DNA of 64,000 nt. It comes from an uncultured virus (IMG/VR IMGVR_UViG_3300042465_006264) (taxonomy: Duplodnaviria > Heunggongvirae > Uroviricota > Caudoviricetes). The DNA lies in IMG/VR virus record IMGVR_UViG_3300042465_006264; one strand, given 5' to 3'. Made by a program: the position numbers and the translations under genes. The notes below the pieces were generated by a model. It was not told where the DNA came from. It ran no database searches and was given only the letters and a program-made list of their open reading frames with translations. Shown here piece by piece: positions 1,710 to 58,934 of the stretch (position 1 is its first letter; each line of letters starts with the position of its first letter).

Positions 1710-3896
1710 TTAGGCGGTAAGCCCTCCGAAGGCAGAGAGGGAGTAGAGTCCCTGATCCATCTTGCGGAGGGGCTGACCCGCGATGATGTCCACATACTTG
1801 GAGAGGAACACGCGGCTACCCCCACGCTGCCCCATCGTCTTGACAAAGGTGTTCTTCACCTTGACGAAGGAACCCTTCTCGGCAATCGCGTCCTCGTCCT
1901 TGACGATCTTGGGAGTCTTGATGAGGAAGAACGCATCAAATCCGGGGAAGGCATCGTCCACGACGAGGATGCAGCCGTCCTTATACTGCTCACGGGCCTT
2001 CAGGTAGCGGGGAGCGTCCTCAATGCGGTAGGAGCGATCCCGGACACTCACCCACTCCTTCTGAGTGACGCAGAAGTTTTGGTAGTCGTGTTCGGAGAGG
2101 TTACGCTGACCGACGAACATCCCGACGATCCGGGCATTGAGGGTAGACCGCAGAGACTCCATGATCGTGGCGATCACGCCATTCGGCAGAGTCACGGCGT
2201 AGTTCTCGCAGGGGAACCGAATCACGGTATCGCTGATCTCATTGATGACCGTGAGCGAAGTGTTCTCCCCGGTTCGGTAGAACATCGTGCCCGCCTTGCT
2301 ATCGTCCATCACGCCGATGCTGTTGGGCTGACCATCCGTGACGAGCATGAGGGTCGGGATCTGAATGTTGTTCGCAGTCACCCACTCCTTCATCAACTGC
2401 GACACCATCATCATGGCCTCAACGGTGGGAGTACCGCCCATCGGCAGGAAGCCACGGTGGCCCTCCTTGCAGTACGAGGTATAGAGTCCCGCGAGAATCT
2501 TGTCCCGCTTCTCCTTGCTGTCGGCAGACGAGGCGAGGTTCACCAACTTGCAATTATAAACTCTAACCGAAGTCGGGGAGGGATTGACGAGGATGGGATC
2601 GGAAGGGTGCGTGAATCCGACACCCGCGTAGTCATCGGGGTTCTTCTTGTAGTATTCCTTCTGCGCCTGCTCCCGGTCACGGGTGTAGAGCGGGTGCGCC
2701 ATGTCCGTGAAGGCGTACACCTCAAACGGAATCTTGGCCTTCTCGCAGAACCAAACCAACTGAAGCACCTGAAGGATGCAATTCCCGATGGACGAAGCCA
2801 TCGACCCGCTGAAGTCGATCACGAACATGATGCCGTGATTCTTGCCCTCCTGCTTGATGATCTTGGAGAGGAAGATATCGTCGTGAGTCCGGTACTGATG
2901 CAGGCGATCAAGGTCGAGCATCCCGGTCTGCTTGGGGCGCTCACGACGAATCTCGTCTGCTGCCTTACGGCGCTCAAACTGCGCGACCAACTGCCGCACA
3001 AACGCATCGGACTCGCTGACGAACTGACGGTAGGGCGGGAGCGGGTCGATGCCAAAGACATGGCGCTGGCCCATGATCTCCATGAGGTCGGTGGTGCTGA
3101 CGATCTGCTTGTCCAAGTTGGCAAGCGGGGAGAGCGTGATGGTCGAAGCGTAGAAGTTGTCCCCGTCCTTCTTGCCGATGGCAGAGGACATATCAAGGAG
3201 TTCACTTCCGGGATCACCTTCCCCGGTCATGGAACTGCCCTCACCGGGAACGACCTTGCCCGTCTTGTCCCCCTTGCCATTGCCCTGCGCTGCAAACTTC
3301 TTCTTCAGCGCATCAACAGACTTGGCGAACTGCTGCGAACCGTACAGACGCTTGGCGAGGTCGATGACCTCATCGAAAGTCTCAACGGCAAGCACCTCAT
3401 CGACCACGGCCATCTCGTCCTCGCTCATGGCGAAGTTGAGGAATCCGGGAATGCCCCACTTGAGGTAGGTGTTGAGGCGGTTGAGGGCGGATGCCTTGCT
3501 GAAGTCCTTGCCCTTGAACTTGAACAGGTCGGTGTCGATGATCTCCTTGTAGCCCAAGAAGAAGTCCCGGCGCGTCCCCGGATACTTCTCCTTCATCAGA
3601 CGCTCAATGCGGACATCCTCAATGACATTCGCAATGACCTGAAGGGTCTGAATGCAGTAGCCCTCCTCGCCTGCCTGCTTGAGCAGCACCTCGGAACGCT
3701 CATAGGGAGTCCACAAGGCGTGGCTGATCTCATGCGCGACGAGCATGGACTGTAGGGTTTCGGAGACATTCCAAACGGGCATGACGAGGTGGCGGTTCTT
3801 GACATCGAAGGATGCCGTGCCAGCACTAGCGTCAAAGGCGAATGAAATGTTCTCGGTGGCGAGGGCGCGGGCAAAGATGGAGAGAGACTTGTTCAT
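1710..3896 (-). CDS. CobT-like protein: N-terminal HEXXH metallopeptidase-like domain and C-terminal VWA domain
   Basis: HEISH and downstream EDVRIE motifs; MIDAS motif DFSGS, GGTP and VTDG; lies next to a CobS-like ATPase as in T4-like phages. Confidence 0.85.
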   Translation of the reverse strand: MNKSLSIFARALATENISFAFDASAGTASFDVKNRHLVMPVWNVSETLQSMLVAHEISHALWTPYERSEVLLKQAGEEGYCIQTLQVIANVIEDVRIERLMKEKYPGTRRDFFLGYKEIIDTDLFKFKGKDFSKASALNRLNTYLKWGIPGFLNFAMSEDEMAVVDEVLAVETFDEVIDLAKRLYGSQQFAKSVDALKKKFAAQGNGKGDKTGKVVPGEGSSMTGEGDPGSELLDMSSAIGKKDGDNFYASTITLSPLANLDKQIVSTTDLMEIMGQRHVFGIDPLPPYRQFVSESDAFVRQLVAQFERRKAADEIRRERPKQTGMLDLDRLHQYRTHDDIFLSKIIKQEGKNHGIMFVIDFSGSMASSIGNCILQVLQLVWFCEKAKIPFEVYAFTDMAHPLYTRDREQAQKEYYKKNPDDYAGVGFTHPSDPILVNPSPTSVRVYNCKLVNLASSADSKEKRDKILAGLYTSYCKEGHRGFLPMGGTPTVEAMMMVSQLMKEWVTANNIQIPTLMLVTDGQPNSIGVMDDSKAGTMFYRTGENTSLTVINEISDTVIRFPCENYAVTLPNGVIATIMESLRSTLNARIVGMFVGQRNLSEHDYQNFCVTQKEWVSVRDRSYRIEDAPRYLKAREQYKDGCILVVDDAFPGFDAFFLIKTPKIVKDEDAIAEKGSFVKVKNTFVKTMGQRGGSRVFLSKYVDIIAGQPLRKMDQGLYSLSAFGGLTA

Positions 3897-3902
3897 GCGT
3901 GT

Positions 3903-3932
3903 ATCTTACCATACCGGGGTGCGAAATTGCAA
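3903..3932 (-). promoter_or_regulatory. Sigma70-type promoter, 18-bp spacer, leaderless
   Basis: TTGCAA-N18-TAAGAT-N6-ATG(3896). Confidence 0.75.
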
Positions 3933-3941
3933 GCCCATACT

Positions 3942-3969
3942 AAAGTTTTTTTAAAGTCCTATAACCGGC
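3942..3969 (-). repeat. Conserved upstream box, copy A
   Basis: GCCGGTTATAGGACTTTAAAAAAACTTT; near-identical copies at 5634 and 8887. Confidence 0.85.
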
Positions 3970-3991
3970 AGGGGGGTCCAGGGTGTCCGGG

Positions 3992-4035
3992 CTACTATCC
4001 GCGACCATCAAAAAGCAGCTGCTTTTTGATAGTAG
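3992..4035. repeat. Bulged hairpin element, copy 2
   Basis: CTACTATC-cgcgacc-ATC-AAAAAGC-agct-GCTTTTT-GATAGTAG. Confidence 0.85.
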
Positions 4036-4097
4036 TCTGCCGGTTCCTGGAGGGGACGGCGTAGCAGATGCCGTCCCCTCCACCGCAGAGCAACAGA

Positions 4098-4319
4098 TTA
4101 GGCCGGAACTGCGTTGAACAGAACCGTCAGGTCGTAGGTACGGGTGCTGACGCTGCTCTTGCACTCCTTCAGCACCCAAGTCGGGATGCCCTTCATGTTG
4201 ATGCTGTTTGCGACTGCAAGAAGATCGGACTTCTTGAACTCGTCAGCTTTGATGCCGTTGGACTCTGCGTGAGTCTTTGCGGCCTGAATGAAGCGATTGC
4301 GCTTGTTGAGGTAAGGCAT
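4098..4319 (-). CDS. Small basic hypothetical protein
   Basis: 73-aa ORF with a strong RBS (AAAGGAGG); directly downstream of the CobS-like gene. Confidence 0.8.
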   Translation of the reverse strand: MPYLNKRNRFIQAAKTHAESNGIKADEFKKSDLLAVANSINMKGIPTWVLKECKSSVSTRTYDLTVLFNAVPA

Positions 4320-4337
4320 TGTTAGTTCCTCCTTTCT

Positions 4338-5588
4338 TTAGGCGTTGAGGGCGTAGTTAGTGTTGGTTGCCTGCGGGGGCGCAGGGGGGTTAGTGTTCTC
4401 CATCCCCTCCGGGGCCGGGAGGATGGTCGGGTCGATCTTGGTGTAGAGGTTGAAGAACGCCTCCTGCGTGGACGCATCGAACCGCGTCAGCGTCAGGCGG
4501 ATCGCCTTCTGCTTGTCGTTGAAGATGGCAAACGCCTTGCAGACCTCCTCCAAACGGCGGGTCGTGATGATGTCATCCAAGCCGCCCTCCTTGAAGCCCA
4601 TACGGATCGTTTCCGCCCACTTGACGAGGTACTGCGCGAACTCCTTGTCGATCTTGCCGTAGTGCGTCATCTTGCGGATGATGATACGGGCCTCCACGGT
4701 ACGATCCGCGTACTCCTGCTCAAACCAATAGGAGAACCGATCCACGAAAGCCTCGTTCAAGCAGCGGGTTCCGACGAACCGATCAGACTCGCCCTTGCCC
4801 TTCGTGTTGGCCGTGGCGACCACATTGAAGCCCTGCGCGGGCTTGATGAACACGCCGATCTTCTTGATGAAGATGCCCTTGCCCTCAAGCACGGGCTGAA
4901 GGCACATCATCCGCTCCGTGCCCAAGTCGATCTCGTCCAAGAGAAGGACGGCACCGCGCTGCATGGCCTGAACCACACCACCGTAGACGAACTTCGTTTC
5001 GCCGTTGATGAGGCGGAACCCACCGATCAGGTCATCCTCGTCAGTCTCGGCGGTAATGTTGACGCGGATGCACTCGCGTCCCGTGGCCGCGCAAATCTGT
5101 TCGACCATCGTGGTCTTGCCGTTGCCCGACAGACCCGTAATGTAGACGGGCGCGAACTGCTTGGACGCGAGGATCGTGGAGATATCGTCGTAGTGTCCCC
5201 ACGGAACGAAAGTGTCGTTCTTGGCCGGGACGAGGGAGACTTCGGGCATGGACGCGATGAGGTTGTAGTTGCTGCTGCTCATGTTTGAAACGGTATCACA
5301 AGTTTCGGGTGCGGTCAAGGAATCTTCGGAAAGATTGTCAGAAGTTTCTGCATCCACGGAAACCATCTCCGGGATACGGTAGAAGCCACGGCCTGCACGG
5401 CGCGCAGGGTCTTGGACGAGCCAAGCCGGGAGAACCTTGTAGCAGTCGATCCCGGTCTGCTCACACTCAAGGAGAACCGTGACGCATTGCTGACGGCTGT
5501 AGACGGCATTAGCCACCGTTGCGGGTACGCCGTTGAACTTCTTGAGGACGGCGAGAAAGTTAGTCTTGCGGGTGTCAATGTTGCTCAT
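4338..5588 (-). CDS. cobS: CobS/MoxR-like AAA+ ATPase
   Basis: Walker A GLSGNGKTT, Walker B LLLDE, ATANTKGKG and NEAFVDRF motifs, typical of phage CobS-like proteins. Confidence 0.9.
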   Translation of the reverse strand: MSNIDTRKTNFLAVLKKFNGVPATVANAVYSRQQCVTVLLECEQTGIDCYKVLPAWLVQDPARRAGRGFYRIPEMVSVDAETSDNLSEDSLTAPETCDTVSNMSSSNYNLIASMPEVSLVPAKNDTFVPWGHYDDISTILASKQFAPVYITGLSGNGKTTMVEQICAATGRECIRVNITAETDEDDLIGGFRLINGETKFVYGGVVQAMQRGAVLLLDEIDLGTERMMCLQPVLEGKGIFIKKIGVFIKPAQGFNVVATANTKGKGESDRFVGTRCLNEAFVDRFSYWFEQEYADRTVEARIIIRKMTHYGKIDKEFAQYLVKWAETIRMGFKEGGLDDIITTRRLEEVCKAFAIFNDKQKAIRLTLTRFDASTQEAFFNLYTKIDPTILPAPEGMENTNPPAPPQATNTNYALNA

Positions 5589-5594
5589 GCCCCA

Positions 5595-5624
5595 ATCTTA
5601 CCACACTCCCCCTCCAAAAGTCAA
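5595..5624 (-). promoter_or_regulatory. Sigma70-type promoter, 18-bp spacer, leaderless
   Basis: TTGACT-N18-TAAGAT-N6-ATG(5588). Confidence 0.8.
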
Positions 5625-5633
5625 CAGCGGAGT

Positions 5634-5660
5634 AAAGTTTTTTAAAGTCCGATAACCGGC
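5634..5660 (-). repeat. Conserved upstream box, copy B
   Basis: GCCGGTTATCGGACTTTAAAAAACTTT. Confidence 0.85.
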
Positions 5661-5720
5661 AGTCTAGTTCCAGGTGCAGCTGGTACTACACCATCCCATC
5701 CGAAATTATTATTATGTCCG

Positions 5721-5768
5721 CTACTATCCGGAATCGGGATGGTCTAAAGCTGACCATCCCGATAGTAG
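5721..5768. repeat. Bulged hairpin element, copy 3
   Basis: CTACTATC-cgga-ATC-GGGATGGTC-taaagct-GACCATCCC-GATAGTAG. Confidence 0.85.
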
Positions 5769-5773
5769 TCCTC

Positions 5774-5810
5774 AAAAGAACAGGACACCGGGCTCAATGC
5801 CGGTGTCCTG
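5774..5810 (-). terminator. Intrinsic terminator
   Basis: CAGGACACCGG-loop-CCGGTGTCCTG followed by TTCTTTT on the minus strand. Confidence 0.65.
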
Positions 5811-5852
5811 AATATGAAGGAAGGTTTATCCCCCTAGCATCTCACTAGGGTA

Positions 5853-6122
5853 TTAGGCTTCCGTGTTGTAGTAGGCTGAAGTGTAAGGAGCCTTCTCCTT
5901 GTTGAGTGACTTGTGCATCGAATCAACGCTCTGAATCCTTCGATCCAAGTTTTCGCAGCGAGTGCGAACCCAGTCAAATTCCGCCTTGACAAACTCGGTG
6001 TTCGTTCTGATGTCCTCAAACACTTCACGCTTCATTGCCTGCATCGTGTGCATGATGTGTCGATACACCATGTACAGAGACAGGACTGCCGCGATGCCCC
6101 AACCGATGAACTGAAGTTCCAT
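5853..6122 (-). CDS. Hypothetical membrane-anchored protein
   Basis: Start MELQFIGWGIAAVLSLYMVY overlaps the upstream stop; N-terminal hydrophobic segment followed by a helical region. Confidence 0.7.
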   Translation of the reverse strand: MELQFIGWGIAAVLSLYMVYRHIMHTMQAMKREVFEDIRTNTEFVKAEFDWVRTRCENLDRRIQSVDSMHKSLNKEKAPYTSAYYNTEA

Positions 6123-6403
6123 TAGCGCGAACCTCCGTTCTCTCGGTTGATGACATTGGGAGCATCGTAACGCCTGCGAACCGTTGCGATGATGTTCTTG
6201 TACTGCATGGGCGTAGCAGAGAAGTTGATCTCGTTCCACTCTCCGTCATTGCCAATCTCGGTACGGAACCGAACATCGGAGTAACGCTTCTTCAGACCGT
6301 TCATGCAGCGGTAGGTGCGAGAGGTGTTGCTTGAAGCGTTGTCGCTCAAGTAGCCGATGGTGTAGTTGTACTTGCGAGTCTTGCTCTTCTTCTTAGTAAT
6401 CAT
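6122..6403 (-). CDS. Basic hypothetical protein
   Basis: Start MITKKKSK lies 7 nt after the -10 box TATACT. Confidence 0.7.
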   Translation of the reverse strand: MITKKKSKTRKYNYTIGYLSDNASSNTSRTYRCMNGLKKRYSDVRFRTEIGNDGEWNEINFSATPMQYKNIIATVRRRYDAPNVINRENGGSR

Positions 6404-6409
6404 GTGTCT

Positions 6410-6437
6410 AGTATACTCCAAGTTCGGGACAAGTCAA
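6410..6437 (-). promoter_or_regulatory. Sigma70-type promoter, 16-bp spacer, leaderless
   Basis: TTGACT-N16-TATACT-N6-ATG(6403). Confidence 0.7.
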
Positions 6438-6463
6438 GCAAAAAGATTCGTCTTTTTGCTGAA

Positions 6464-6539
6464 TGGGAAGGGCGGGAGTTGCACCCACATATTCGCGCTT
6501 ATAAGGCACGCGCTCTATCTACTTTTCAGCCACCTTCCC
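6464..6539 (-). tRNA. tRNA-Ile(UAU), atypical T-loop
   Basis: Acceptor stem GGGAAGG/CCTTCCC; anticodon arm CGTGC-CTTATAA-GCGCG; T-arm GTGGG-TGCAACT-CCCGC; no encoded CCA. Confidence 0.75.
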
Positions 6540-6641
6540 GAATCGCTAGTTTTACGGCTAGCGGTCAACCGTGCATTAGCAGAATGCCTCTGTGTGTTTT
6601 AGGGTTCCACCGAACCGTTTATAAAATAGTCATTGTGTTCC

Positions 6642-6821
6642 TCATAGGGAATCCTGAAGTTCGCCAAGCATCCTGATGACCTTGTCAAGTCGATCCCCGA
6701 TCTGATTGGGGGAGAGTCTGCCTTCATCGACATCGTTCCAAATCTCGCAGACATAATCATCGATGCGAGTCACCTTCTCGGAAAGCGTTTGGGCTTTGGT
6801 CTTCGTCTTGGTGTTTGCCAT
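6642..6821 (-). CDS. Hypothetical protein (59 aa)
   Basis: Manual translation MANTKTKTKAQTLSEKVTRIDDYVCEIW...QDSL; leaderless promoter upstream. Confidence 0.7.
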   Translation of the reverse strand: MANTKTKTKAQTLSEKVTRIDDYVCEIWNDVDEGRLSPNQIGDRLDKVIRMLGELQDSL

Positions 6822-6827
6822 GCGTTT

Positions 6828-6857
6828 ATCCTACCACACTCTGTGGTCATTTGTCAA
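6828..6857 (-). promoter_or_regulatory. Sigma70-type promoter, 18-bp spacer, leaderless
   Basis: TTGACA-N18-TAGGAT-N6-ATG(6821). Confidence 0.8.
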
Positions 6858-6858
6858 G

Positions 6859-6932
6859 CGTTCCCGGTTGGATTCGAACCAACGACCTGCTGCTTAGAAG
6901 GCAGCTGCTCTATCCAACTGAGCTACGAGAAC
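6859..6932 (-). tRNA. tRNA-Arg(UCU)
   Basis: Canonical cloverleaf; anticodon loop CTTCTAA; T-loop TTCGAAT; no CCA. Confidence 0.95.
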
Positions 6933-6935
6933 AAA

Positions 6936-7020
6936 TGGGATTGGTGGGACTTGAACCCACAAGACTTTAGAGGTCGGCAGATTTTGAGTCTGCTGCGTAT
7001 GCCGATTCCGCCACAATCCC
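6936..7020 (-). tRNA. tRNA-Leu(CAA)
   Basis: Cloverleaf with long variable arm; anticodon loop CTCAAAA; T-loop TTCAAGT; no CCA. Confidence 0.95.
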
Positions 7021-7029
7021 ATCGATTTG

Positions 7030-7058
7030 ATTCTACCACAGGTTTGGGGTATCGTCAA
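7030..7058 (-). promoter_or_regulatory. Sigma70-type promoter for tRNA-Leu/Arg, 17-bp spacer
   Basis: TTGACG-N17-TAGAAT with extended TG, 10 nt upstream of tRNA-Leu. Confidence 0.7.
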
Positions 7059-7446
7059 ATTTAAATTTCTGCTGAATTTTATTATAAAAATCAGCGTTTG
7101 CAGGAATGACAGACTCATGAAGACGACCTGGATTCAGGTGGTCATTGATGTCTGCCTTTGCATCCCAATAGGCTTCGATGAGTTCCTTCGGTGGGTTGGC
7201 ATTGCCCTCCAACCAAAGTTCCATGATGGCCTCCATGACGATGGCAAGGCGATCATATGCCTGAAGAGTCTTGATGTAGTGAGACTCGGGAATGGGGTTC
7301 AGACCACACTCCTCGTCAAGCTTTGCAAGGCGATCCAATGCCTCGTTCCGCTCCTTCATCAGACGCAGGGCATCATCTTCCCAACGGTCTGCCTGCTCGG
7401 TCAGGTCTGCGATCTTCTTATTGAGTTGTTCGATCTCGTCTTTCAT
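7033..7446 (-). CDS. Hypothetical coiled-coil protein
   Basis: ORF starting MKDEIEQLNKK just after tRNA-Lys. Confidence 0.7.
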   Translation of the reverse strand: MKDEIEQLNKKIADLTEQADRWEDDALRLMKERNEALDRLAKLDEECGLNPIPESHYIKTLQAYDRLAIVMEAIMELWLEGNANPPKELIEAYWDAKADINDHLNPGRLHESVIPANADFYNKIQQKFKFDDTPNLW

Positions 7447-7448
7447 AA

Positions 7449-7521
7449 TGCCTCCGGTGGGGTTCGAACCCACGACCAATAGATTAAAAGTCTACTGCGC
7501 TACCAACTGCGCCACAGAGGC
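7449..7521 (-). tRNA. tRNA-Lys(UUU)
   Basis: Canonical cloverleaf; anticodon loop CTTTTAA; T-loop TTCGAAC; no CCA. Confidence 0.95.
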
Positions 7522-7525
7522 GAAA

Positions 7526-7675
7526 CTAGGGACCCTGTTGAAGCCGGGTCCCAACCCGCGTACCCTTGATCTTACGGCAGTCATGGTCTTCGACTGCTAC
7601 GGTTGCCTGCCTACGGGGCTTCTCCTTGCGGAAAGGTATTGTCCCTAGGGGACACCAGCCGATTTACGGAAGGCT
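7526..7675 (-). ncRNA. Candidate structured ncRNA between a promoter and tRNA-Lys
   Basis: No credible ORF; several hairpins, a possible 8-bp closing stem CTAGGGAC/GTCCCTAG, and four CCGTA motifs. Confidence 0.45.
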
Positions 7676-7691
7676 ATTAGCTCATCCCCCT

Positions 7692-7721
7692 ATTATAACC
7701 GGGGGGACACGGTGCTGTCAA
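7692..7721 (-). promoter_or_regulatory. Consensus sigma70 promoter, 18-bp spacer
   Basis: TTGACA-N18-TATAAT-N6-ATG AGC TAA. Confidence 0.85.
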
Positions 7722-7722
7722 G

Positions 7723-8070
7723 TCAGTCCTCCTCGGATTCCTTCGGAGGGCCGAAACGATTCCTCTCCTCCTCACCTGCGTACTCCTCGTAGGTTTCGTT
7801 GATCTGCATGGTGACGAGCATCAGGACACCGGAAGAGAACACATCAAGTTCCTTCGCCATCTCCGGGTCGCGGATCATGTGCGCGCAGTACGACAGGGCG
7901 CAGCAGATTTCGAATCGGAGTTGGGCGTCTGCGTAGTACAGTTCACCCTTGTTGGCGATCACACCCAGCATCGACTCCACCACGGCGGGGATCGGCGGCT
8001 TGAAGTTCTGCACGCCCTTCGGCGGGGTCTTGGCGGTGAAGAAGTCGGCAAAGTCATCGGAGGGGTTCAT
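7723..8070 (-). CDS. Hypothetical protein
   Basis: 115-aa ORF; start overlaps the upstream stop; RBS GAAGGA. Confidence 0.75.
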   Translation of the reverse strand: MNPSDDFADFFTAKTPPKGVQNFKPPIPAVVESMLGVIANKGELYYADAQLRFEICCALSYCAHMIRDPEMAKELDVFSSGVLMLVTMQINETYEEYAGEEERNRFGPPKESEED

Positions 8071-8306
8071 TCGGAGATTCCTTCGTTCAGGGTTGCGGTA
8101 ATGTTTTCGATGAGATTGAACTCCTCATCCGAAACATCCAACGGATGAGCAATCGTGGTGAGAATGCCTCTTGCGAGGGTCATGCGGTTGCGGATCACTT
8201 CGTCATCCGCCCAGTCCGGGTACTGCTCAACGCAGAACCGAATCTGATTCAGCAGGTCGCTGATCTTGCAGGTCGTTGGGGTTGCTGTTCGGTGTCCTCG
8301 GGGCAT
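8067..8306 (-). CDS. Hypothetical protein
   Basis: 79-aa ORF behind a leaderless promoter. Confidence 0.75.
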   Translation of the reverse strand: MPRGHRTATPTTCKISDLLNQIRFCVEQYPDWADDEVIRNRMTLARGILTTIAHPLDVSDEEFNLIENITATLNEGISE

Positions 8307-8312
8307 GGCTGT

Positions 8313-8342
8313 ATCCTATCACACGGGGGTCGGAGAAGTCAA
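8313..8342 (-). promoter_or_regulatory. Sigma70-type promoter, 18-bp spacer, leaderless
   Basis: TTGACT-N18-TAGGAT-N6-ATG(8306). Confidence 0.8.
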
Positions 8343-8624
8343 GCCCACCATGTCGAAATTGCGGGCAAGTCTGCGGTCAAAGTCCATCAGCACATCTTCC
8401 GGGCAGTCCGCGAACACCCACACCACGAACATGGTATCAGGGAGTTGTTCGCTGTTGTGAGTCTCTATGCAGAGAACCCACTCGGAAGCTTGGGAGAGAA
8501 CGCTACAAAGTTTAATAATCTTGTAGCACTCCTTGGACTTGCGGGTTGTCCATCCCCGGTTCATCTGCGGATGACGCAGCCAACCGGCGATCCGATGCAT
8601 GGGCTTTCCGATGGGACTAGTCAT
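8319..8624 (-). CDS. Hypothetical protein
   Basis: Probable start MTSPIGKP at 8624 with GAGGA RBS, overlapping the end of the upstream acidic gene. Confidence 0.6.
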   Translation of the reverse strand: MTSPIGKPMHRIAGWLRHPQMNRGWTTRKSKECYKIIKLCSVLSQASEWVLCIETHNSEQLPDTMFVVWVFADCPEDVLMDFDRRLARNFDMVGLTSPTPV

Positions 8625-8841
8625 TGTCCTCGTCCTCCGCGTCTGCCCAACTCGGAAGGTCATCCTCGTCGGGAATGTCATCGTCTGCCAGCCACTCCTC
8701 ATCCTGACTCATGGCGATCATGGCACGGGCTTCGTCCTCGGAGAAACCTTCGTCCATCAGTTCAGCCACAGCGTCATCGGTGTCGATGAGGTCGCTGTCG
8801 TCGTAGGTGTCGTTCTCGTCGTTGTCGTAGGGCTTGCTCAT
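8617..8841 (-). CDS. Very acidic small protein
   Basis: 74 aa dominated by Asp/Glu; leaderless promoter upstream. Confidence 0.8.
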   Translation of the reverse strand: MSKPYDNDENDTYDDSDLIDTDDAVAELMDEGFSEDEARAMIAMSQDEEWLADDDIPDEDDLPSWADAEDEDND

Positions 8842-8847
8842 GCGTGT

Positions 8848-8877
8848 ATCTTATCAGGTGGGGTGCGAGAAAGTCAA
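8848..8877 (-). promoter_or_regulatory. Sigma70-type promoter, 18-bp spacer, leaderless
   Basis: TTGACT-N18-TAAGAT-N6-ATG(8841). Confidence 0.8.
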
Positions 8878-8886
8878 GTAGGTGGA

Positions 8887-8914
8887 AAAGTTTTTTTAAT
8901 GTCCGATAACCGGC
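8887..8914 (-). repeat. Conserved upstream box, copy C
   Basis: GCCGGTTATCGGACATTAAAAAAACTTT. Confidence 0.85.
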
Positions 8915-8924
8915 GGGTCCGGGG

Positions 8925-8980
8925 CTACTATCCGCCAACCGTCCCAGAATCAGGGAGGGTCTGACCCTCCCTGATAGTAG
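8925..8980. repeat. Bulged hairpin element, copy 4
   Basis: CTACTATC-cgccaaccgtcccaga-ATC-AGGGAGGGTC-t-GACCCTCCCT-GATAGTAG. Confidence 0.85.
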
Positions 8981-8988
8981 ACGCCCCC

Positions 8989-9252
8989 TCACCCGTAGAC
9001 CTTCTCCCGTTCTACGTCCATCTTCTCTCGGATCATCCGCTCCCCTATAATCACGCCGGTTAGAATCGCGTTCAGACAATCCTTCATCTGGCGCTTGGTG
9101 ACGAATCCGGGGGTGATACCGTGGCTTCCGCCATCGACATCCTCCATCAGCTGCCAGCCTCCGTAGGCACCCTGAAGGTAGAACTTCCTACCCGTCATCT
9201 TGTTCAGGTTGTCCACGCGAAACTGTAAATCTTTCTTGGTGGTTCGGATCAT
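8989..9252 (-). CDS. Hypothetical phage protein (GAYGG motif)
   Basis: Start MIRTTKKDLQ at the leaderless position; contains LQGAYGGWQL. Confidence 0.75.
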   Translation of the reverse strand: MIRTTKKDLQFRVDNLNKMTGRKFYLQGAYGGWQLMEDVDGGSHGITPGFVTKRQMKDCLNAILTGVIIGERMIREKMDVEREKVYG

Positions 9253-9258
9253 GGCTTG

Positions 9259-9288
9259 ATTGTACCCGATGGGTGCGAAGTTTGTCAA
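9259..9288 (-). promoter_or_regulatory. Sigma70-type promoter, 18-bp spacer, leaderless
   Basis: TTGACA-N18-TACAAT-N6-ATG(9252). Confidence 0.85.
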
Positions 9289-9292
9289 GTCC

Positions 9293-9655
9293 TTAGTGGG
9301 CGATTTCCGGGCATTCCGCCGGGATGCTGATTTCGAACACATTGTCCGTGTTGAAGGACCGGATGCCTCCACGCGCATAGTCGTAGTAGAGGATGCTGGA
9401 GGTGTAGTGGTCGGAGAGACGCAGCGCCTGCAACTCCTCGTCCCCTGCGTAGTGGCGCACAATGGCCGGGTTCCGGGTCGCGGTGCGGGTCGTGGTCTGA
9501 CCGTTGGCGTTCCGGTAGGTGATCTCGATCCAGCCGTTGTTCAGCAGGCTGTAGAGGGTTTCGGCCCGAATCTTACGGGACACGGGGCCAAGCGACATGG
9601 CGCTGTTCGGAGCGATGAGGTGGTCCAACGGGATGCTGTTGCGGGTGATGCTCAT
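9293..9655 (-). CDS. WYL-like (SH3/Sm beta-barrel) protein
   Basis: IEITYRNANGQTTTRTAT...YYDYARGGIRSF matches the WYL/DUF2693 pattern. Confidence 0.7.
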   Translation of the reverse strand: MSITRNSIPLDHLIAPNSAMSLGPVSRKIRAETLYSLLNNGWIEITYRNANGQTTTRTATRNPAIVRHYAGDEELQALRLSDHYTSSILYYDYARGGIRSFNTDNVFEISIPAECPEIAH

Positions 9656-9661
9656 GGGTTC

Positions 9662-9691
9662 ATTGTAGCAGGTGAGGGTCGGGAAAGTCAA
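9662..9691 (-). promoter_or_regulatory. Sigma70-type promoter, 18-bp spacer, leaderless
   Basis: TTGACT-N18-TACAAT-N6-ATG(9655). Confidence 0.85.
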
Positions 9692-9801
9692 GGGGTCGAA
9701 AGAAATTTATTATAATTTGCAGCCCGAGGCCCCAACGAATCTAGCCGCCCCCGAAGGGCGGCAGGGCCGAAGCCTTTTCGATCCGTGGCGACCCCTCGCC
9801 G

Positions 9802-10143
9802 TTAGCTCAGATTCTGATGGTGCATTCCGGTGGCCTCGGCGCGCTTCGCGTTCAGGTTGAACCCCGGGCCACCACCGGGGCCGTAGATAATCTCGGCCAT
9901 CCGGTCTTCCTTCGCGCTGTCCACGGCGCGGAAGGCGTTCACGGTCTGCCGCAGCGCTGCGGCCACCTCGGGGCTAACCATGTTCGGAAAGCGCTCCGAA
10001 ACTTCCGTGATGGCCTCGACCTTCAGCAGCAGGCCAACCATGTACCCGTAGCACAGCGGGTAGAGGGTGTTCGCGCTCTGCGCGTTGGCGATGGCGGAAG
10101 CGGTGGCGGGAGGGAGCTGCACGGTGGGGGTCGGGGTGGTCAT
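9802..10143 (-). CDS. Hypothetical protein
   Basis: 113-aa ORF behind a leaderless promoter. Confidence 0.75.
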   Translation of the reverse strand: MTTPTPTVQLPPATASAIANAQSANTLYPLCYGYMVGLLLKVEAITEVSERFPNMVSPEVAAALRQTVNAFRAVDSAKEDRMAEIIYGPGGGPGFNLNAKRAEATGMHHQNLS

Positions 10144-10149
10144 GAGTTT

Positions 10150-10179
10150 ATTATATCAGGTCCGGGGTGCGAAAGTCAA
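10150..10179 (-). promoter_or_regulatory. Sigma70-type promoter, 18-bp spacer, leaderless
   Basis: TTGACT-N18-TATAAT-N6-ATG(10143). Confidence 0.85.
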
Positions 10180-10196
10180 GGCCCTAGGTGGAAAGT

Positions 10197-10763
10197 TTAC
10201 TGCGCCTTTCCGCGCACAATGATCCAGAGCAGGGCCTGCAGGGTGGCGGGGCTGATGGTGAGCGGGAGGCTGTCCGCGACCACGGTAACCGCGTCAGCGA
10301 TGGCCCGGTACTCGGTCTTGTTGGGCGCGTCCTTGCCGAGCCCCGCTGCACGGCACATCCACACATCCACCACCACCGCGTTAGCGTCTCCCGCGATGGC
10401 ACGGGCAAACGCATTCGTCTTCAGGCCCCGGAGGCCATCGAAGCCGTCCCGGCAGCAGCGGTCCGCCGCGACCACATGGGAGCGGAGGCCCTTCGGCGTG
10501 ATGCCCTGCGCGTACTGTAGGGCCTTAGCCTTATTATGGCCCCACGTCACACGGGGCGAGAAGGCCGACACGACAGACGCGGACACTTCAAGGGTCCACT
10601 CGGGGCGGATGATCCGCAGCGACTGCGCGAAGGAACGCGCTTCGGCGTACCACGACTCGGCAGCGCGCAGGTCATCACCCGTAGCGCGCTGCAGCAGGTC
10701 GAAGAAAGCGTTGATAGCGCGGGTGCGGGTGGCGTTGTAGCGGTTGGTGGCGGTGGGGGTCAT
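10197..10763 (-). CDS. Phage protein with HhH-GPD DNA-glycosylase-like motifs
   Basis: WY...SAFSPRVTW..N, GLKTNAF, VVVDVWMCR and PATLQALLW motifs; start MTPTATN at the leaderless position. Confidence 0.6.
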   Translation of the reverse strand: MTPTATNRYNATRTRAINAFFDLLQRATGDDLRAAESWYAEARSFAQSLRIIRPEWTLEVSASVVSAFSPRVTWGHNKAKALQYAQGITPKGLRSHVVAADRCCRDGFDGLRGLKTNAFARAIAGDANAVVVDVWMCRAAGLGKDAPNKTEYRAIADAVTVVADSLPLTISPATLQALLWIIVRGKAQ

Positions 10764-10769
10764 GCCCCA

Positions 10770-10799
10770 ATGATACCACAGCCACCGGCAGGAAAGCAA
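10770..10799 (-). promoter_or_regulatory. Sigma70-type promoter, 18-bp spacer, leaderless
   Basis: TTGCTT-N18-TATCAT-N6-ATG(10763). Confidence 0.7.
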
Positions 10800-10835
10800 C
10801 CCCCACGACGAAAGTTTATAAAGTTTGCTAGGCGC

Positions 10836-10865
10836 TTGCATTCCAGGGTAGTCGTGTGCTACAAT
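10836..10865 (+). promoter_or_regulatory. Divergent sigma70-type promoter, 18-bp spacer, leaderless
   Basis: TTGCAT-N18-TACAAT-N6-ATG(10872). Confidence 0.75.
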
Positions 10866-10871
10866 GGACGC

Positions 10872-11096
10872 ATGAGCAACCCCAACCATCACGAAGGCGA
10901 GTGCTGCGCGTGTGGCCGTGTGGCCCCGATTGACGCTACCGAAATGTGCGTCAGTTGCACCGAGGAAATGAACGCCGTTATCGATGAACGCGATGCGAAT
11001 AACGATTCCTTCGCGGATGCCTGCGGGCAGATGACCCGCGAGGATTGGGATGCCGATAACGATTGGCTCGCTTCGGCGGGATGGGGGGAAATGTGA
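10872..11096 (+). CDS. Small acidic protein with putative Zn ribbon
   Basis: MSNPNHHEGECCACG...MCVSC...DWLASAGWGEM; two CxxC pairs. Confidence 0.7.
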   Translation: MSNPNHHEGECCACGRVAPIDATEMCVSCTEEMNAVIDERDANNDSFADACGQMTREDWDADNDWLASAGWGEM

Positions 11097-11129
11097 AGAG
11101 CTAATAACAAACTACAACCGGCAGGTTGG

Positions 11130-11152
11130 GCCCCCGAACAGGGGGCTTTATT
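11130..11152 (+). terminator. Probable intrinsic terminator
   Basis: GCCCCC-gaaca-GGGGGC followed by TTTATT. Confidence 0.55.
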
Positions 11153-11387
11153 AATTTCAAATATTAATTTAGCTAAGGTTTCAGCGGTCCAAACAGTGAT
11201 TTGGGTCCCATAGACCGGGGAGTTATCGGAGCGGCTAGCCCACCGACCCCTCTAATAATTTTTAATTTTCTTCAAAAATACCCCACCCCCCCATGACCCC
11301 CTTTTTCAAATTACATGGGATGGTCAAAAAAATTTCCGGCCCCAAAAGAGCCGGAAAAGGTTCACTATAAAATTTTTATATTATTCT

Positions 11388-12146: not shown

Positions 12147-12185
12147 AAAAATATTTATAAACAAAAAATTTCAAAAAAATCTCAA

Positions 12186-12193: not shown

Positions 12194-12198
12194 ACTAC

Positions 12199-13616: not shown

Positions 13617-13653
13617 GGTATTACTATTTATCTAAATATTAAAAAGGAAACTT

Positions 13654-13824
13654 ATGCTCGCAAAAATTAAAAATTTGTTATCTAAAGTCACAATTATTGA
13701 ATGGGTTCTCTTTGGTGTTGCAGTAGCAGCCCTCGTAGTCGCCTTTAGCGCTCATGGAAAGCGTCCCGGACACAAGGGACCCCGTGGTGAGCATGAGGCT
13801 CCCAAGGCCGTAGAAGTCAAATAA
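13654..13824 (+). CDS. Small membrane protein (56 aa)
   Basis: Manual translation MLAKIKNLLSKVTIIEWVLFGVAVAALVVAFSAHGK...; RBS AAAGGA. Confidence 0.65.
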   Translation: MLAKIKNLLSKVTIIEWVLFGVAVAALVVAFSAHGKRPGHKGPRGEHEAPKAVEVK

Positions 13825-14319: not shown

Positions 14320-14561
14320 TGCAAATTAAAGAAACTTTAAAAAATGTTGTTATTCTATTGGATAAAGAAGAAGATTTTTTAAAAGATTCTATAGAAAATT
14401 TATTCATCAAAATTAAAGAATATAAAAAACTTCCATTTCATGAAATAATTTTACAAATGCCTTCAAGGTATTATGTAAAATTTTGGGAAATGCTCAGATC
14501 AAAAAAAGAAAATTACAAAGAAGCGGAAATCAAAAATGATATTTTCCGTATATCCTTTTAA
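14319..14561 (+). CDS. Hypothetical protein
   Basis: 80-aa ORF coupled to its neighbours by TAATG overlaps. Confidence 0.65.
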   Translation: MQIKETLKNVVILLDKEEDFLKDSIENLFIKIKEYKKLPFHEIILQMPSRYYVKFWEMLRSKKENYKEAEIKNDIFRISF

Positions 14562-15136
14562 TGGAAAACCCTGAAGAACAATTCCAGATGGATTTGTTAA
14601 ATGTATTTTTGAATACAGATTTAAATTATAGGTCATATCTTGGGCTACCAAAAGATTACATGACTTCTGAATTTAAAAAAGAAAAGTATAAAAAACTTGC
14701 AAGTGAAGATGATAATTTTCAAGAATACATTAAATTAAAATATGGGTCTTTAGAAAATTTTTATAAATTTAATCCTCAGTTAGAGGAAGAAAGAATTTAT
14801 GACCCATTGAATGATTATGATATGGAAGTAGAAATTGTAACTAAAGAAGAATATTTGAAAACTAACTTCATTTCAAGTCCAGAATTGTTTATGGAGGTCA
14901 TAGATGGTGTATCTACGATACAATATTTTAAAGTAGATGGAAACGCTGCACAGATGTTTGGAACTTTAAAAAAATCAGTAATCCCCTCTAGTCAATATGA
15001 AACCAGACAAAAGGCGTTTGGTTTTTTTGGTGGAAAAAGAATTTTATTGTGGGATGTTACAAAACAAGACTGGTCTTCAGTTTATATTCCAAATATAAAA
15101 AGATTTATTAGAGATGACACAACAGAATTGCAATAA
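14561..15136 (+). CDS. Protein with C-terminal WYL-like (DUF2693-type) domain
   Basis: IQYFKVDGNAAQMFGTL...LWDVTKQDWSSV. Confidence 0.65.
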   Translation: MENPEEQFQMDLLNVFLNTDLNYRSYLGLPKDYMTSEFKKEKYKKLASEDDNFQEYIKLKYGSLENFYKFNPQLEEERIYDPLNDYDMEVEIVTKEEYLKTNFISSPELFMEVIDGVSTIQYFKVDGNAAQMFGTLKKSVIPSSQYETRQKAFGFFGGKRILLWDVTKQDWSSVYIPNIKRFIRDDTTELQ

Positions 15137-15322: not shown

Positions 15323-15350
15323 TTGACTAACAATGTTTGTATGATATTCT
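15323..15350 (+). promoter_or_regulatory. Sigma70-type promoter, 16-bp spacer
   Basis: TTGACT-N16-TATTCT with extended TG; ATG at 15358. Confidence 0.65.
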
Positions 15351-17745: not shown

Positions 17746-17773
17746 TTGTATATCCTAAAAGAAGGGTTATAAT
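17746..17773 (+). promoter_or_regulatory. Sigma70-type promoter, 16-bp spacer
   Basis: TTGTAT-N16-TATAAT. Confidence 0.6.
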
Positions 17774-24017: not shown

Positions 24018-24045
24018 TTGACAGTCAAGAATTACATGCTATTAT
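24018..24045 (+). promoter_or_regulatory. Sigma70-type promoter, 16-bp spacer
   Basis: TTGACA-N16-TATTAT with extended TG. Confidence 0.7.
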
Positions 24046-24073
24046 ACTAAAACTTCTTAAGAAAGGAAATGTT

Positions 24074-24310
24074 ATGGAAATTACTACAGTTGATCGTCCT
24101 ACAAAGATTCAGAGAGTGTTCGATTTTATGCGTTCAGGTTCGCCACTGACTGCGGGAGAGGCCCGTAAGCGCTTCCGCGTTCAGAACATGCGCGCCACGA
24201 TGCACGACCTCCGAGAGGCGTTTGATCGCTTCGACATGAACTACAACGTAGTTCGTAGTTCACGTAATGGACGAAGTTACTACAGGCTTGTGAAGAACAG
24301 AACTCGCTAA
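24074..24310 (+). CDS. Small winged-helix DNA-binding protein
   Basis: TKIQRVFDFMRSGSPLTAGEARKRFRVQNMRATMHDLR...YYRL; RBS AAAGGA. Confidence 0.7.
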   Translation: MEITTVDRPTKIQRVFDFMRSGSPLTAGEARKRFRVQNMRATMHDLREAFDRFDMNYNVVRSSRNGRSYYRLVKNRTR

Positions 24311-26637: not shown

Positions 26638-26715
26638 TATTTGTTCCTATAAATAGTTCTAGAATATTTAGAAGGAAATAATATTGATTTTATCAGAGAG
26701 TGAGATATATTAGTC

Positions 26716-26949
26716 ATGTACATGGACGATTCAGCAAAAGAAAAATTTTCATCAAAAGTAATTGAACGAGTTAAATCTACAAATTTATCGTTCATGGAGT
26801 GTGTTTTGGAACTTAGTGATGAAATGGGATTAGACCCATCTGCATCCGGCAAACTATTAACAAAACCTTTAATAGAAAAAATTGAGATGGAAGCTAAAGA
26901 TCTTAATTTTATAAAAAAAAGAAAAACCAAAAAACTTCCTGTTGACTAA
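26716..26949 (+). CDS. Late transcription coactivator gp33
   Basis: FS..VIE.VK....SFMECVLE...KLLTKPLIEKIEMEA.DLNFI; lies upstream of gp32 as in T4-like phages; TTGATT-N16-TATATT at 26684-26711. Confidence 0.8.
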   Translation: MYMDDSAKEKFSSKVIERVKSTNLSFMECVLELSDEMGLDPSASGKLLTKPLIEKIEMEAKDLNFIKKRKTKKLPVD

Positions 26950-26969
26950 ACTAATAGTCATCGTATAAT
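26942..26969 (+). promoter_or_regulatory. Sigma70-type promoter, 16-bp spacer
   Basis: TTGACT-N16-TATAAT. Confidence 0.8.
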
Positions 26970-50409: not shown

Positions 50410-50432
50410 TAGATAACCGTGTGTAAATCACG

Positions 50433-50467
50433 AAACCCTCCCGAGAAATCGGGAGGGTTTTCTTTTT
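50433..50467 (+). terminator. Intrinsic terminator after gp23
   Basis: AAACCCTCCCGA-GAAA-TCGGGAGGGTTT-TCTTTTT. Confidence 0.88.
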
Positions 50468-50482
50468 ACCATAAATATTTCT

Positions 50483-51654: not shown

Positions 51655-51672
51655 TTAATGTCCTCCTTTAAA

Positions 51673-53181: not shown

Positions 53182-53188
53182 ATAATAT

Positions 53189-53626: not shown

Positions 53627-53647
53627 CTTAAGTTCTTTTTATAGAGA

Positions 53648-53713
53648 ACTATAAAGTAACTCTAGATAAAGTCAAATAAATATATTTGACATTTATTAAT
53701 AATACTCTATATT
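53648..53713. promoter_or_regulatory. Divergent sigma70-type promoters, both with 16-bp spacers
   Basis: Minus strand TTGACT-N16-TATAGT (53648-53675); plus strand TTGACA-N16-TATATT (53686-53713). Confidence 0.7.
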
Positions 53714-53729
53714 AACTGTGAGGACTCTA

Positions 53730-57588: not shown

Positions 57589-57592
57589 TTAC

Positions 57593-57620
57593 TTGTTTTT
57601 TAAATTAAAAAGAGTACAAT
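57593..57620 (+). promoter_or_regulatory. Sigma70-type promoter, 16-bp spacer, leaderless
   Basis: TTGTTT-N16-TACAAT-N6-GTG(57627). Confidence 0.55.
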
Positions 57621-57626
57621 ACTATT

Positions 57627-58934
57627 GTGAAACATATTTTAAAATTAGTTGAAGAATATATAAATCAAAAAGAAAAAAAGACATGGATTCCCGGTCACGA
57701 TACAGTAAAATATGCTGGTCCTTATTTTACTGCGGAAGAATATGTTGCCGCTATAGAAGCACTTTTAAATGGATGGTTAGTGCTTGGGCAAAGTGGAATT
57801 AAATTTGAGAATACATTTCCAAAATTATTTGATAAAAATTTTGGAATACTAACAAATAGTGGAAGTAGTTCAAATTTAATAATGATGTCGGCAATGACAT
57901 CAAAGAGACTTTACAATTTTCCTAAAGGAACTAAAGTAATAACGCCAATAGCTGGATTTCCTACTACCTTAAATCCAATATTTCAAGTAGGATTTGAACC
58001 AGATTTTGTAGATATTGAATTAGATTCTTTAAATCTTAATTTAGATCAAGTAGAAGAAAAAGCAAAACAAGGGTCAAAAATTATAACGTTTGCCCATGTG
58101 CTGGGGAATCCACCCAACATGGATCAGTTAATAGATATAGTCAAAAGATATGATCTAATCCTCTTGGAGGATTGCTGTGACGCATTAGGATCAACCTATA
58201 AAGATAAGCCACTTGGATCGTTTGGACAATTCGCTAGTTGTTCTTTTTATCCAGCACACCATATTACAATGGGTGAGGGTGGTTTTATTGCATGCAATAC
58301 ACATGAGCAAGAGATTGTAATTAGAAGTTTTAGAGAGTGGGGTCGTGGATGCTATTGTGTAGGAGAGAAAGCAAATCTCCTAAAAAATGGTTGTTGTGGA
58401 AAAAGATTTTCAAATTGGCTACCGTCATTACCAGATGAAATTTTTGATCACAAATATGTTTATGATGAGATTGGCTATAATTTAAAACCAATAGAGTTAC
58501 AAGCAGCAATGGGATTAGTTCAAATGAAAAAAATCCCAGAGATAAATGAAAAAAGAAAAAAGAATCATGCTAGATTAGTAGAAATATTCTCACCATATGA
58601 AGAATATTTTATATTACCAAAAGCAACAGATCATTCCGATCCAAGTTGGTTTGCATTTGCTGTAACCATTAAAGATAATTCTAAATTTAAAAGAAAAGAT
58701 ATTGTTGAATTTTTAGAGAGTAATAAAATTCAAACAAGACCATATTTTGCTGGTAATGTAATGTTACAACCAGCATACGATGGATTAATGTCATCGGATG
58801 TGGTAATTAATAATTATCCAAATGCTAGAAAAGTAACTACAGATACTTTCTTTCTGGGAACAAGTCCAGTAATAACAGATGTTCAATTGAATTATATTGA
58901 ACAGACAGTACAAAACTTTTTTAAACAAATATAA
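57627..58934 (+). CDS. rfbH: RfbH/DdhC-like NDP-4-keto-6-deoxyhexose 3-dehydratase (DegT/DnrJ family)
   Basis: NSGSSSNL, EDCCDALGS, SFYPAHHITMGEGG (His in place of the PLP Lys) and the Cys motif WGRGCYC. Confidence 0.88.
   Translation: MKHILKLVEEYINQKEKKTWIPGHDTVKYAGPYFTAEEYVAAIEALLNGWLVLGQSGIKFENTFPKLFDKNFGILTNSGSSSNLIMMSAMTSKRLYNFPKGTKVITPIAGFPTTLNPIFQVGFEPDFVDIELDSLNLNLDQVEEKAKQGSKIITFAHVLGNPPNMDQLIDIVKRYDLILLEDCCDALGSTYKDKPLGSFGQFASCSFYPAHHITMGEGGFIACNTHEQEIVIRSFREWGRGCYCVGEKANLLKNGCCGKRFSNWLPSLPDEIFDHKYVYDEIGYNLKPIELQAAMGLVQMKKIPEINEKRKKNHARLVEIFSPYEEYFILPKATDHSDPSWFAFAVTIKDNSKFKRKDIVEFLESNKIQTRPYFAGNVMLQPAYDGLMSSDVVINNYPNARKVTTDTFFLGTSPVITDVQLNYIEQTVQNFFKQI
58855..58928 (+). repeat. 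74-bp direct repeat, copy 1 (3' end of rfbH)
   Basis: Matches 59730..59803 with 5 mismatches. Confidence 0.9.

Follow-up and report, generated by a model that had tools for sequence, protein, structure and literature searches.

Genome segment and its GC-rich island

The window analysed here, a stretch of 64,000 nucleotides from an uncultured virus of the Caudoviricetes (IMG/VR record IMGVR_UViG_3300042465_006264), is about half of the genome of an uncultured T4-like lake phage, and it carries two classes of sigma70-type promoters that differ in the spacing between their -35 and -10 boxes. An island of promoter-gene cassettes and four tRNA genes, with a GC content of 0.50 to 0.63 from about 1000 to 11100, is set in DNA of 0.25 to 0.46 elsewhere in the window; we refer to this AT-rich part as the core. 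The genes for gp17, gp32, gp33 and uvsY/W were found within the window, and together with records of the same species the T4-like gene set comprises gp23, gp17, gp32, gp33, gp55, gp45/44/62, regA and uvsX/Y/W. Two such records, G001 (90-98% identity, covering positions 10510-57567 of the window) and G002 (97% identity, covering 668-5314), add gp55, gp45/44/62, regA, uvsX, gp41 and gp61 beyond the window. Its gp23, encoded at 49-50 kb in DNA with a GC content of 0.46, was at most 53% identical to any entry of the phage collection, and all 24 of the lake metagenome runs listed carried the phage. The clade-wide scans below cover 15 contigs of the T4-like lake clade to which this phage belongs, all partial records (17-76% complete); G001, as the same species, and contigs L016-L056 (distant CobS matches), except for L019, were left out of the pooled counts.

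Two classes of sigma70-type promoters

A sequence-only reading of the window had listed promoters with an 18-bp spacer in the island and a 16-bp spacer elsewhere. All 21 sites were present with the spacers claimed and at their coordinates, which mark the leftmost base of each element in plus-strand numbering: eleven of 18 bp (ten on the minus strand, 10836 alone on the plus strand), eight of 16 bp in the core, one of 16 bp at 6410 and one of 17 bp at 7030. The hexamers, TTGACA-like and TAnnnT, stand 16-18 bp apart upstream of genes, as in sigma70 promoters. The site at 7030 is not the only one with 17 bp, as had been stated, because a second with a weak -10 box lies at 5290-5318 inside the CobS gene; a 16-bp site on the minus strand (1425-1452) and a weak 16-bp site (about 13636-13663) had also been missed. 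Some core sites are less sharply defined, with alternative registers of 14 and 19 bp at 15323 and of 19 and 20 bp at 24018, and with weak -35 boxes at 17746, 26684 and 57593. Chance does not account for the two spacings. Eleven 18-bp matches were observed in the island against a shuffle mean of 0.44 and a maximum of 3 (300 shuffles), and the upstream regions of 22 of the 68 core open reading frames (ORFs; at least 25 non-coding bases each) held five 16-bp matches against 0.62 expected (500 shuffles, P = 0.002); a Fisher test of 7:1 against 0:5 gave P = 0.005. A scan of spacer length by region bore out the split in part: over the whole sequence the AT-rich part was flat, and hence not informative, and the 16-bp peak appeared once the scan was limited to intergenic and upstream DNA.

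Across the clade, one uniform rule was applied (TTGAC and TAnnnT boxes, at least 4/6 matches, an ORF of at least 50 amino acids starting within 3-45 nt, spacers of 12-23 bp). In the core, 115 of 251 matches had a 16-bp spacer, 14 had 17 bp, 33 had 18 bp and each other length had 2-18; 16 of the 33 "18-bp" matches were +2 shadows of a 16-bp site, with the ATG at 4 nt. In the island, 124 of 191 matches had 17 bp, 39 had 16 bp and 8 had 18 bp, seven of the latter from the window itself. The start codon peaks 6 nt after the -10 box in both classes, which together with the shadow matches confirms the promoter register.

The two classes differ in more than spacing. The -10 box starts with TATA in 21/144 island promoters against 73/110 core promoters, and a G occupies position -14 in 119/144 against 47/110. 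The GC content is 0.60 against 0.35 in the spacer and 0.68 against 0.34 in the discriminator, and the start codon falls 6-7 nt after the -10 box in 147/171 against 46/115. TG was present in nine of the ten 18-bp leaderless promoters of the window phage. The claim that two sigma70-type promoter classes exist is supported. In ten of the 18-bp promoters the -10 box is separated by 6 nt from the start codon ATG of the gene, so leaderless mRNAs are predicted for them; the 6-7 nt distance is only consistent with a transcription start about 7 nt after the -10 box by the host holoenzyme.

The core promoters of the clade share the consensus TTGACW-N16-TATAnT and stand ahead of middle-type genes, as had been proposed: gp32, gp55, uvsY, dUTPase, guaC, genes of the DNA polymerase region and sugar genes, some of these names being given by N-terminal likeness. 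For gp32, a survey of 80 loci (3 too short, 4 without a match) gave 41 distinct promoters. The proposed lack of a MotA box was also upheld, the -35 box being TTGACA/T. As a middle element, the MotA box was rejected, with TGCTT in one of the 115 promoters of the 16-bp core class and no convincing spacing peak (0-7 matches per spacing). MotA-C and AsiA (PF09158, PF09010) matched in 0 of the 15 partial records, where the controls also matched nowhere, so this absence is weak evidence. Middle promoters of the SPO1 type are driven by a second phage sigma factor with a region 4. No region-4 match was found in the 15 incomplete records; 8 of the 15 had one weak region-2 match each, and the one identified, in G001, is gp55. 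A second phage sigma was thus not seen in these records. Nor is the 16-bp class a general trait of cyanophages: in Syn9, the sole outgroup genome scanned (with a similar rule), 16 of 33 sites had 17 bp and 2 had 16 bp. Judged by sequence, what stays constant throughout the clade is a middle class that has 16-bp spacers and no MotA box.

Table 1. Promoters, tRNA genes and border elements in the window, in order of position.
Feature	Position	Strand	Remarks
GC-rich early island of promoter-gene cassettes and four tRNAs (predicted early)	950..11335	.	GC 0.5-0.63; GC3 0.79
Conserved left border element	950..1020	.	aligned in 8 contigs; resembles a minus-strand -35 box whose spacer is too short
16-bp promoter at island edge, no ORF behind	1425..1452	-	16-bp counterparts in G003, G005, G008, G009, G010
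18-bp leaderless promoter, VWA-type/peptidase gene (1710-3896)	3903..3932	-	orthologues: 5 at 16, 21 at 17, 3 at 18 bp
17-bp internal leaderless promoter in CobS/AAA gene, weak -10	5290..5318	-	counterparts in relatives
18-bp leaderless promoter, CobS-like AAA ATPase gene (4338-5588)	5595..5624	-	orthologues: 8 at 16, 17 at 17, 2 at 18 bp
16-bp TATACT promoter; core-class promoter-gene cassette within island	6410..6437	-
tRNA-Ile(TAT), Arg(TCT), Leu(CAA), Lys(TTT)	6464..7521	-
18-bp leaderless promoter	6828..6857	-	orthologues 17-bp in 3/3 others
17-bp promoter of tRNA-Leu/Arg	7030..7058	-
18-bp promoter of probable non-coding RNA and tRNA-Lys	7692..7721	-
18-bp leaderless promoter	8313..8342	-
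18-bp leaderless promoter	8848..8877	-	TCGCACCC at offset 3
18-bp leaderless promoter	9259..9288	-	TCGCACCC at offset 4
18-bp leaderless promoter of WYL_2 gene	9662..9691	-
18-bp leaderless promoter	10150..10179	-	TCGCACCC at offset 1
18-bp leaderless promoter of DUF7178 gene	10770..10799	-
18-bp leaderless promoter, divergent from 10770	10836..10865	+
Conserved right border element	11187..11350	.	aligned in 10 contigs
16-bp leaderless promoter, guaC-like gene	15323..15350	+	16-bp in 9/12 distinct orthologues
16-bp promoter of ORF 17787	17746..17773	+	16 among registers in 15/15 distinct orthologues; no match at 7/24 loci
16-bp promoter, conserved winged-helix gene (19-bp alternative register)	24018..24045	+	22/24 distinct orthologues include 16
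16-bp promoter-like site of gp33, weak -35	26684..26711	+	partly backed by orthologues; no match at 42/88 loci
16-bp promoter of gp32	26942..26969	+	distinct orthologues: 34/41 at 16, 5 at 17, 2 at 21 bp
16-bp promoter of uvsY-uvsW	53648..53675	-	16-bp in 7/8 distinct orthologues
16-bp promoter of sugar-gene cluster	53686..53713	+	6/6 distinct orthologues include 16
16-bp promoter-like site, DegT-family aminotransferase; weak -35, leaderless GTG	57593..57620	+	basis: window only

Spacer length across lineages

The 18-bp spacing did not hold up as a code for early genes. Among 320 distinct leaderless island promoters, drawn from 118 loci and the window, 234 had 17 bp, 67 had 16 bp, 15 had 18 bp and 4 had 19 bp. 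In the 13 contigs with at least four calls in both parts, the core mode was 16 bp in 12, and the island mode was 17 bp in 10, 18 bp in 1 and 16 bp in 2. In G015 (L207), 11 of 11 island promoters and six core promoters had 16 bp; the proposed switch therefore cannot be spacer length alone there. The two classes were still separated in G015 by G-14 (12/12 in the island against 3/6 in the core) and spacer GC content (0.63 against 0.45). Island promoters also leaned to 16 bp in L267 (5/5), L268 (3/3), L243 (4/5) and G012 (8/13). On these counts 18 bp is lineage-specific, and "18 versus 16" is not a conserved code. Spacing is thus a mark of the two classes, and by itself it is probably not the early-to-middle switch.

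In a tree of 56 CobS proteins, the window was sister (100/98) to L002, with 19/19 island promoters at 17 bp, and L219, with 13/13 at 17 bp. A second 18-bp group (L223, L228, L233, L238) fell in the same 12-row CobS clade and was not the sister of the window, suggesting that 18 bp arose twice, reverted or was moved by recombination. Spacer length was shared within genomes at 0.81 against a null of 0.645 (maximum 0.708, 10,000 shuffles; 17 loci, which are not independent lineages), and among orthologues at 0.63, showing that it follows the genome and not the gene.

Identity among the 18-bp spacers is only 41%, and the word CGCACC takes four different offsets in the window against offset 2 in 20 of 28 17-bp spacers. 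Different spacers thus acquired the extra base at different positions, suggesting selection on length in the lineage of the window rather than one copying event, although the comparison of paralogues with orthologues (below) also indicates exchange between cassettes. A single sweep of one 18-bp template is disfavoured on the same grounds. The word TCGCACCC had been noted just downstream of the -35 box in four promoters; there are indeed four copies in the whole window, all inside 18-bp spacers, but they lie at offsets 1, 2, 3 and 4 with no fixed register. The spacer at 10150 is a 17-bp spacer of L293 plus one base on the -10 side and otherwise identical. The promoter at 7692 recurs unchanged, with its 18 bp, in G007, a relative whose other spacers have 17 bp. 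Finally, the TATACT site at 6410 heads a gene whose orthologues sit beyond the island edge in all five of the nine relatives where it was found, indicating that the promoter class travels with the cassette.

The island as a putative early region

GC content at third codon positions (GC3) was 0.79 in island ORFs against 0.22 in core ORFs. Three of the four island tRNAs read ATA, AGA and AAA, codons that are nearly absent from the island (1/131, 2/126 and 2/117, respectively) and dominant in the core (472/1152, 371/595 and 960/1196). This avoidance of the codons of the phage tRNAs is independent support for early timing, and the proposal of an early region gains from it; it fits translation of the island with the tRNA pool of a putative GC-rich host before phage tRNAs accumulate. 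The host search returned only one contig of a metagenome-assembled genome, at 49% and from an unnamed phylum, and did not identify the host; no WhiB or other host marker was detected in a scan of 76 G002/G001 proteins and 36 window proteins.

The genes of the island are in part well conserved, since the VWA-type gene, CobS and ORFs 4098, 7033 and 8067 occurred in 9/9 relatives and the DUF7178 gene in 7/9. As candidate regulatory factors, ORFs 4098 and 8067 matched only unnamed viral clusters or nothing. Like PeSL regions, the island is variable and repeats one sigma70 promoter per small gene.

Depth of coverage hints at a terminal repeat that would enter first, with GC content as a confounder. 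In four of four runs the contig depth in the island exceeded that outside, by factors of 1.85, 2.16, 2.38 and 4.8 (the 32 longest of 1741 listed pieces, one straddling piece being counted as outside). The steps lie near 805-956 and 10422-11333 and coincide with the conserved border elements, and in two runs the exactly matching contigs of core depth have their starts at 11333 and 11337. The island is about 10.4 kb long in the window and 11-12.5 kb in five relatives with full assembly. A repeat-rich non-coding stretch of about 750 bp follows the left border, up to 1700, and most island genes are oriented toward this end. We tentatively suggest that the island is a terminal repeat of about 10.4 kb, an assignment somewhat more likely to fail than to hold. 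If it is correct, it would be an uncommon arrangement for a packaging motor of the T4 type.

Possible mechanisms of the early-to-middle switch

With modest confidence, we favour a reading in which two classes of host-sigma70 promoters, beside the gp55 late promoters, would be ordered mainly by strength and position and possibly by order of entry, with spacer length as one marker among several. The first, class E, stands before single-gene cassettes in the GC-rich island, leaderless with the ATG 6-7 nt after the -10 box. Its signature is a G at -14, often as TG, a GC-rich spacer and discriminator, a -10 box mostly TA(C/G/A)nAT, and a spacer uniform within a genome and varying by lineage (17 bp usually, 18 bp here, 16 bp in some). 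Class M precedes replication, recombination and nucleotide genes and gp55, with the core consensus and an AT-rich spacer at or near 16 bp throughout the clade. Both classes keep a normal -35 contact, which speaks against sigma appropriation of the T4 style. The island would be expressed first because of strong composite -35/extended -10 promoters, codons of a GC-rich host and maybe a double dose in a first-entering terminal repeat. It would supply tRNAs and early factors, and the AT-rich core would then be read from class M. Spacer length may sharpen the shut-off of class E without being the switch by itself. Synthetic 16-, 17- and 18-bp spacers share an upper bound of strength in E. coli (PMC8695583).

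Several observations weigh against this reading. The near-invariant 16 bp of class M is unexplained by it and hints at a reader that works best at this length, and the gain of the extra base at differing places points to selection on length, which would mean that length matters. The pooled lineages are not phylogenetically independent. As to the terminal repeat, GC content is a complete confounder of the depth step (all inside pieces at or above 0.49, all outside pieces at or below 0.40); one ratio, 4.8, is off two-fold, and depth is no copy number; contig ends are not clustered at the borders, since a locus end lies 200 bases away or less for 2 of the 44 border matches; and the terminase gp17 is of the T4 type, about 50% identical to cyanophage gp17.

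An early island product could instead remodel the host RNA polymerase or the DNA topology so that only a 16-bp spacing fits, turning class M on and the 17- and 18-bp early promoters off. Such a spacer ruler, which we regard as rather unlikely, explains the fixed 16 bp best: class M is kept at this length in 12 of 13 contigs and in 34 of 41 distinct gp32 promoters, unlike in Syn9 with mostly 17 bp, and island spacers are longer than core spacers in 11 of the 13 contigs. One base is worth about 34 degrees, which composition does not offset; the core promoters have no MotA box, and the six island genes present in 9/9 or 7/9 relatives could include the factor. However, no candidate was identified among the island proteins scanned, five distinct gp32 promoters have 17 bp, G015 has 16 bp in both classes, and L267, L268, L243 and G012 also have 16-bp island promoters. 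Supercoiling, one of the two means by which the spacing had been proposed to be read, is weakened as an agent. The contrast of long GC-rich and short AT-rich spacers agrees in direction with the expectation for supercoiled as opposed to relaxed DNA (Forquet 2022, PMC9303308; Klein 2021, PMC8695583), and relaxation abolishes most of the activity obtained with 18-bp and GC-rich spacers (PMC8695583), but in E. coli data 16-nt spacers act like long ones under a change of supercoiling and are the stated exception to the model linking spacer and supercoiling (PMC9303308), a paper whose main text is without the word "phage".

Spacing may also have no regulatory meaning, 16 bp being the optimum of the host sigma factor, class M being host-like, and the island length drifting by concerted evolution of PeSL-like cassettes, tolerated through the extended -10 box. 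The half of the spacer next to the -35 box is more alike among paralogues of the same genome (0.41) than among orthologues (0.37), and the half next to the -10 box follows the gene (0.51 against 0.40), as recombination between cassettes would give (PMC2839356); the frequent TG of the window promoters agrees with such tolerance. Nevertheless, the low identity of the 18-bp spacers and the scattered position of their extra base are unlike one sweep, and the host optimum is where one would look for strong early promoters, most of which nevertheless have 17 bp, in a host that the search did not identify. We consider this explanation improbable. The possibility that AT-rich 16-bp and GC-rich 17/18-bp spacers are equal in helical angle, or that the 16-bp peak is AT-rich background, as the flat whole-sequence scan might suggest, can hardly hold, since the twist adds up to 578 degrees over 16 bp, 610 over 17 bp and 646 over 18 bp whatever the class (two parameter sets), which rejects compensation by base composition, and since the peak is sharp in upstream-restricted scans and conserved in orthologues.

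A bolder combination would have this clade replace MotA/AsiA altogether: a GC-rich terminal repeat of about 10 kb, made of leaderless host-codon cassettes with a lineage-tuned spacer, would enter first, and a conserved island protein would then reset the sigma70 ruler to 16 bp and switch on the replication genes. We regard this as a speculative and doubtful scheme.

Comparison with known phage systems

T4 likewise has three promoter classes, with strong -35/TGn/-10 early promoters, a middle class before replication genes and gp55-dependent late TATAAATA sites (PMC2988021). In contrast to T4, the middle promoters here have a consensus -35 box at 16 bp in place of the MotA box, no MotA/AsiA match was found in the records scanned, and the early promoters lack leaders and occur solely in a single GC-rich island. 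Also comparable are the MotA-less T4-like phages, namely marine cyanophages of the Syn9 type, the methylophage Melnitz and RB49 (PMC5780444, PMC9004378, PMC1524935), which share the lack of MotA/AsiA matches and the middle genes behind host-like sigma70 promoters. They also share the pair of CobS and phrog_459 genes, and their gp23 and gp17 are about 50-53% identical. However, the sigma70-like sites of Syn9 mostly have 17 bp with leaders, whereas the middle class here has 16 bp, and the CobS pair of Syn9 stands among replication genes, between gp46 and gp45, whereas here it lies in the early island. How early and middle expression are separated in T4-like phages without MotA/AsiA is stated as open in PMC5780444 and PMC9004378.

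The PeSL cassettes of RB49/phi1 resemble those of the island in having one strong sigma70 promoter per small gene, a plastic region and signs of exchange between cassettes, but PeSLs end in a Shine-Dalgarno sequence (PMC2839356), whereas the cassettes here are GC-rich and leaderless. The first-step-transfer repeat of T5 (10.1101/866236) and the host-takeover module of SPO1 (PMC3896407) are similar as early-gene blocks of about 10 kb with strong host promoters, a repeat-rich non-coding stretch at one border and an about doubled depth, which here is confounded with GC content, the difference being that the phage here is T4-type with a T4-type terminase and its terminal repeat is a candidate only. 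Our literature search found no description of a 16-bp class or of a spacer split, with Doron 2016, the most relevant paper, outside its coverage. The clade thus offers two sequence-defined sigma70 classes with natural 16/16, 17/16 and 18/16 variants (island/core), in which the role of the spacer is directly testable by swaps, and a usable middle-promoter signature for an abundant group of uncultured lake phages.

Other features of the window

The ORF behind the promoter at 7692 has just 2 codons, and the product is probably a non-coding RNA (7522-7686, minus strand) together with tRNA-Lys; the RNA behind it matched no Rfam family, and its fold had a z score of -1.6. The CobS-like AAA and phrog_459 gene pair (1710-5588) has host-like codons, and the second leaderless promoter inside CobS would give a shorter product. 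Among contigs L217-L296, many start 110-175 bases before the CobS start, near a GTCCnATAAC box (5645, 3954 and 8898 in the window). The stretch 960-1700 holds repeats and palindromes (CCCGATAAC- and ATCCTGTCC-type words) and a conserved 16-bp promoter pointing inward, and is a candidate for an origin or an injection stop. In G003 (L144-L150, 81333-93467), about ten extra 17-bp promoters, paired with the gene promoters, have a TACTTGGT-type word but no ORF behind them. There are two genes with a WYL_2 domain, one in the island (9293-9655) and one in the core (14561-15136).

The winged-helix protein encoded at 24071-24310 is a candidate regulator; it was 81-90% identical in six of nine relatives, in each case downstream of a 16-bp promoter in the vicinity of gp33/gp32. 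Nine TATAAATA late-promoter sites were found, at 12159, 12186, 14115, 14118, 26648 (near the gp33 site at 26684), 35243, 41344, 47827 and 59224. For several of them an ATG follows at a distance of 3-6 nt, and two divergent pairs consist of sites that overlap or lie side by side.

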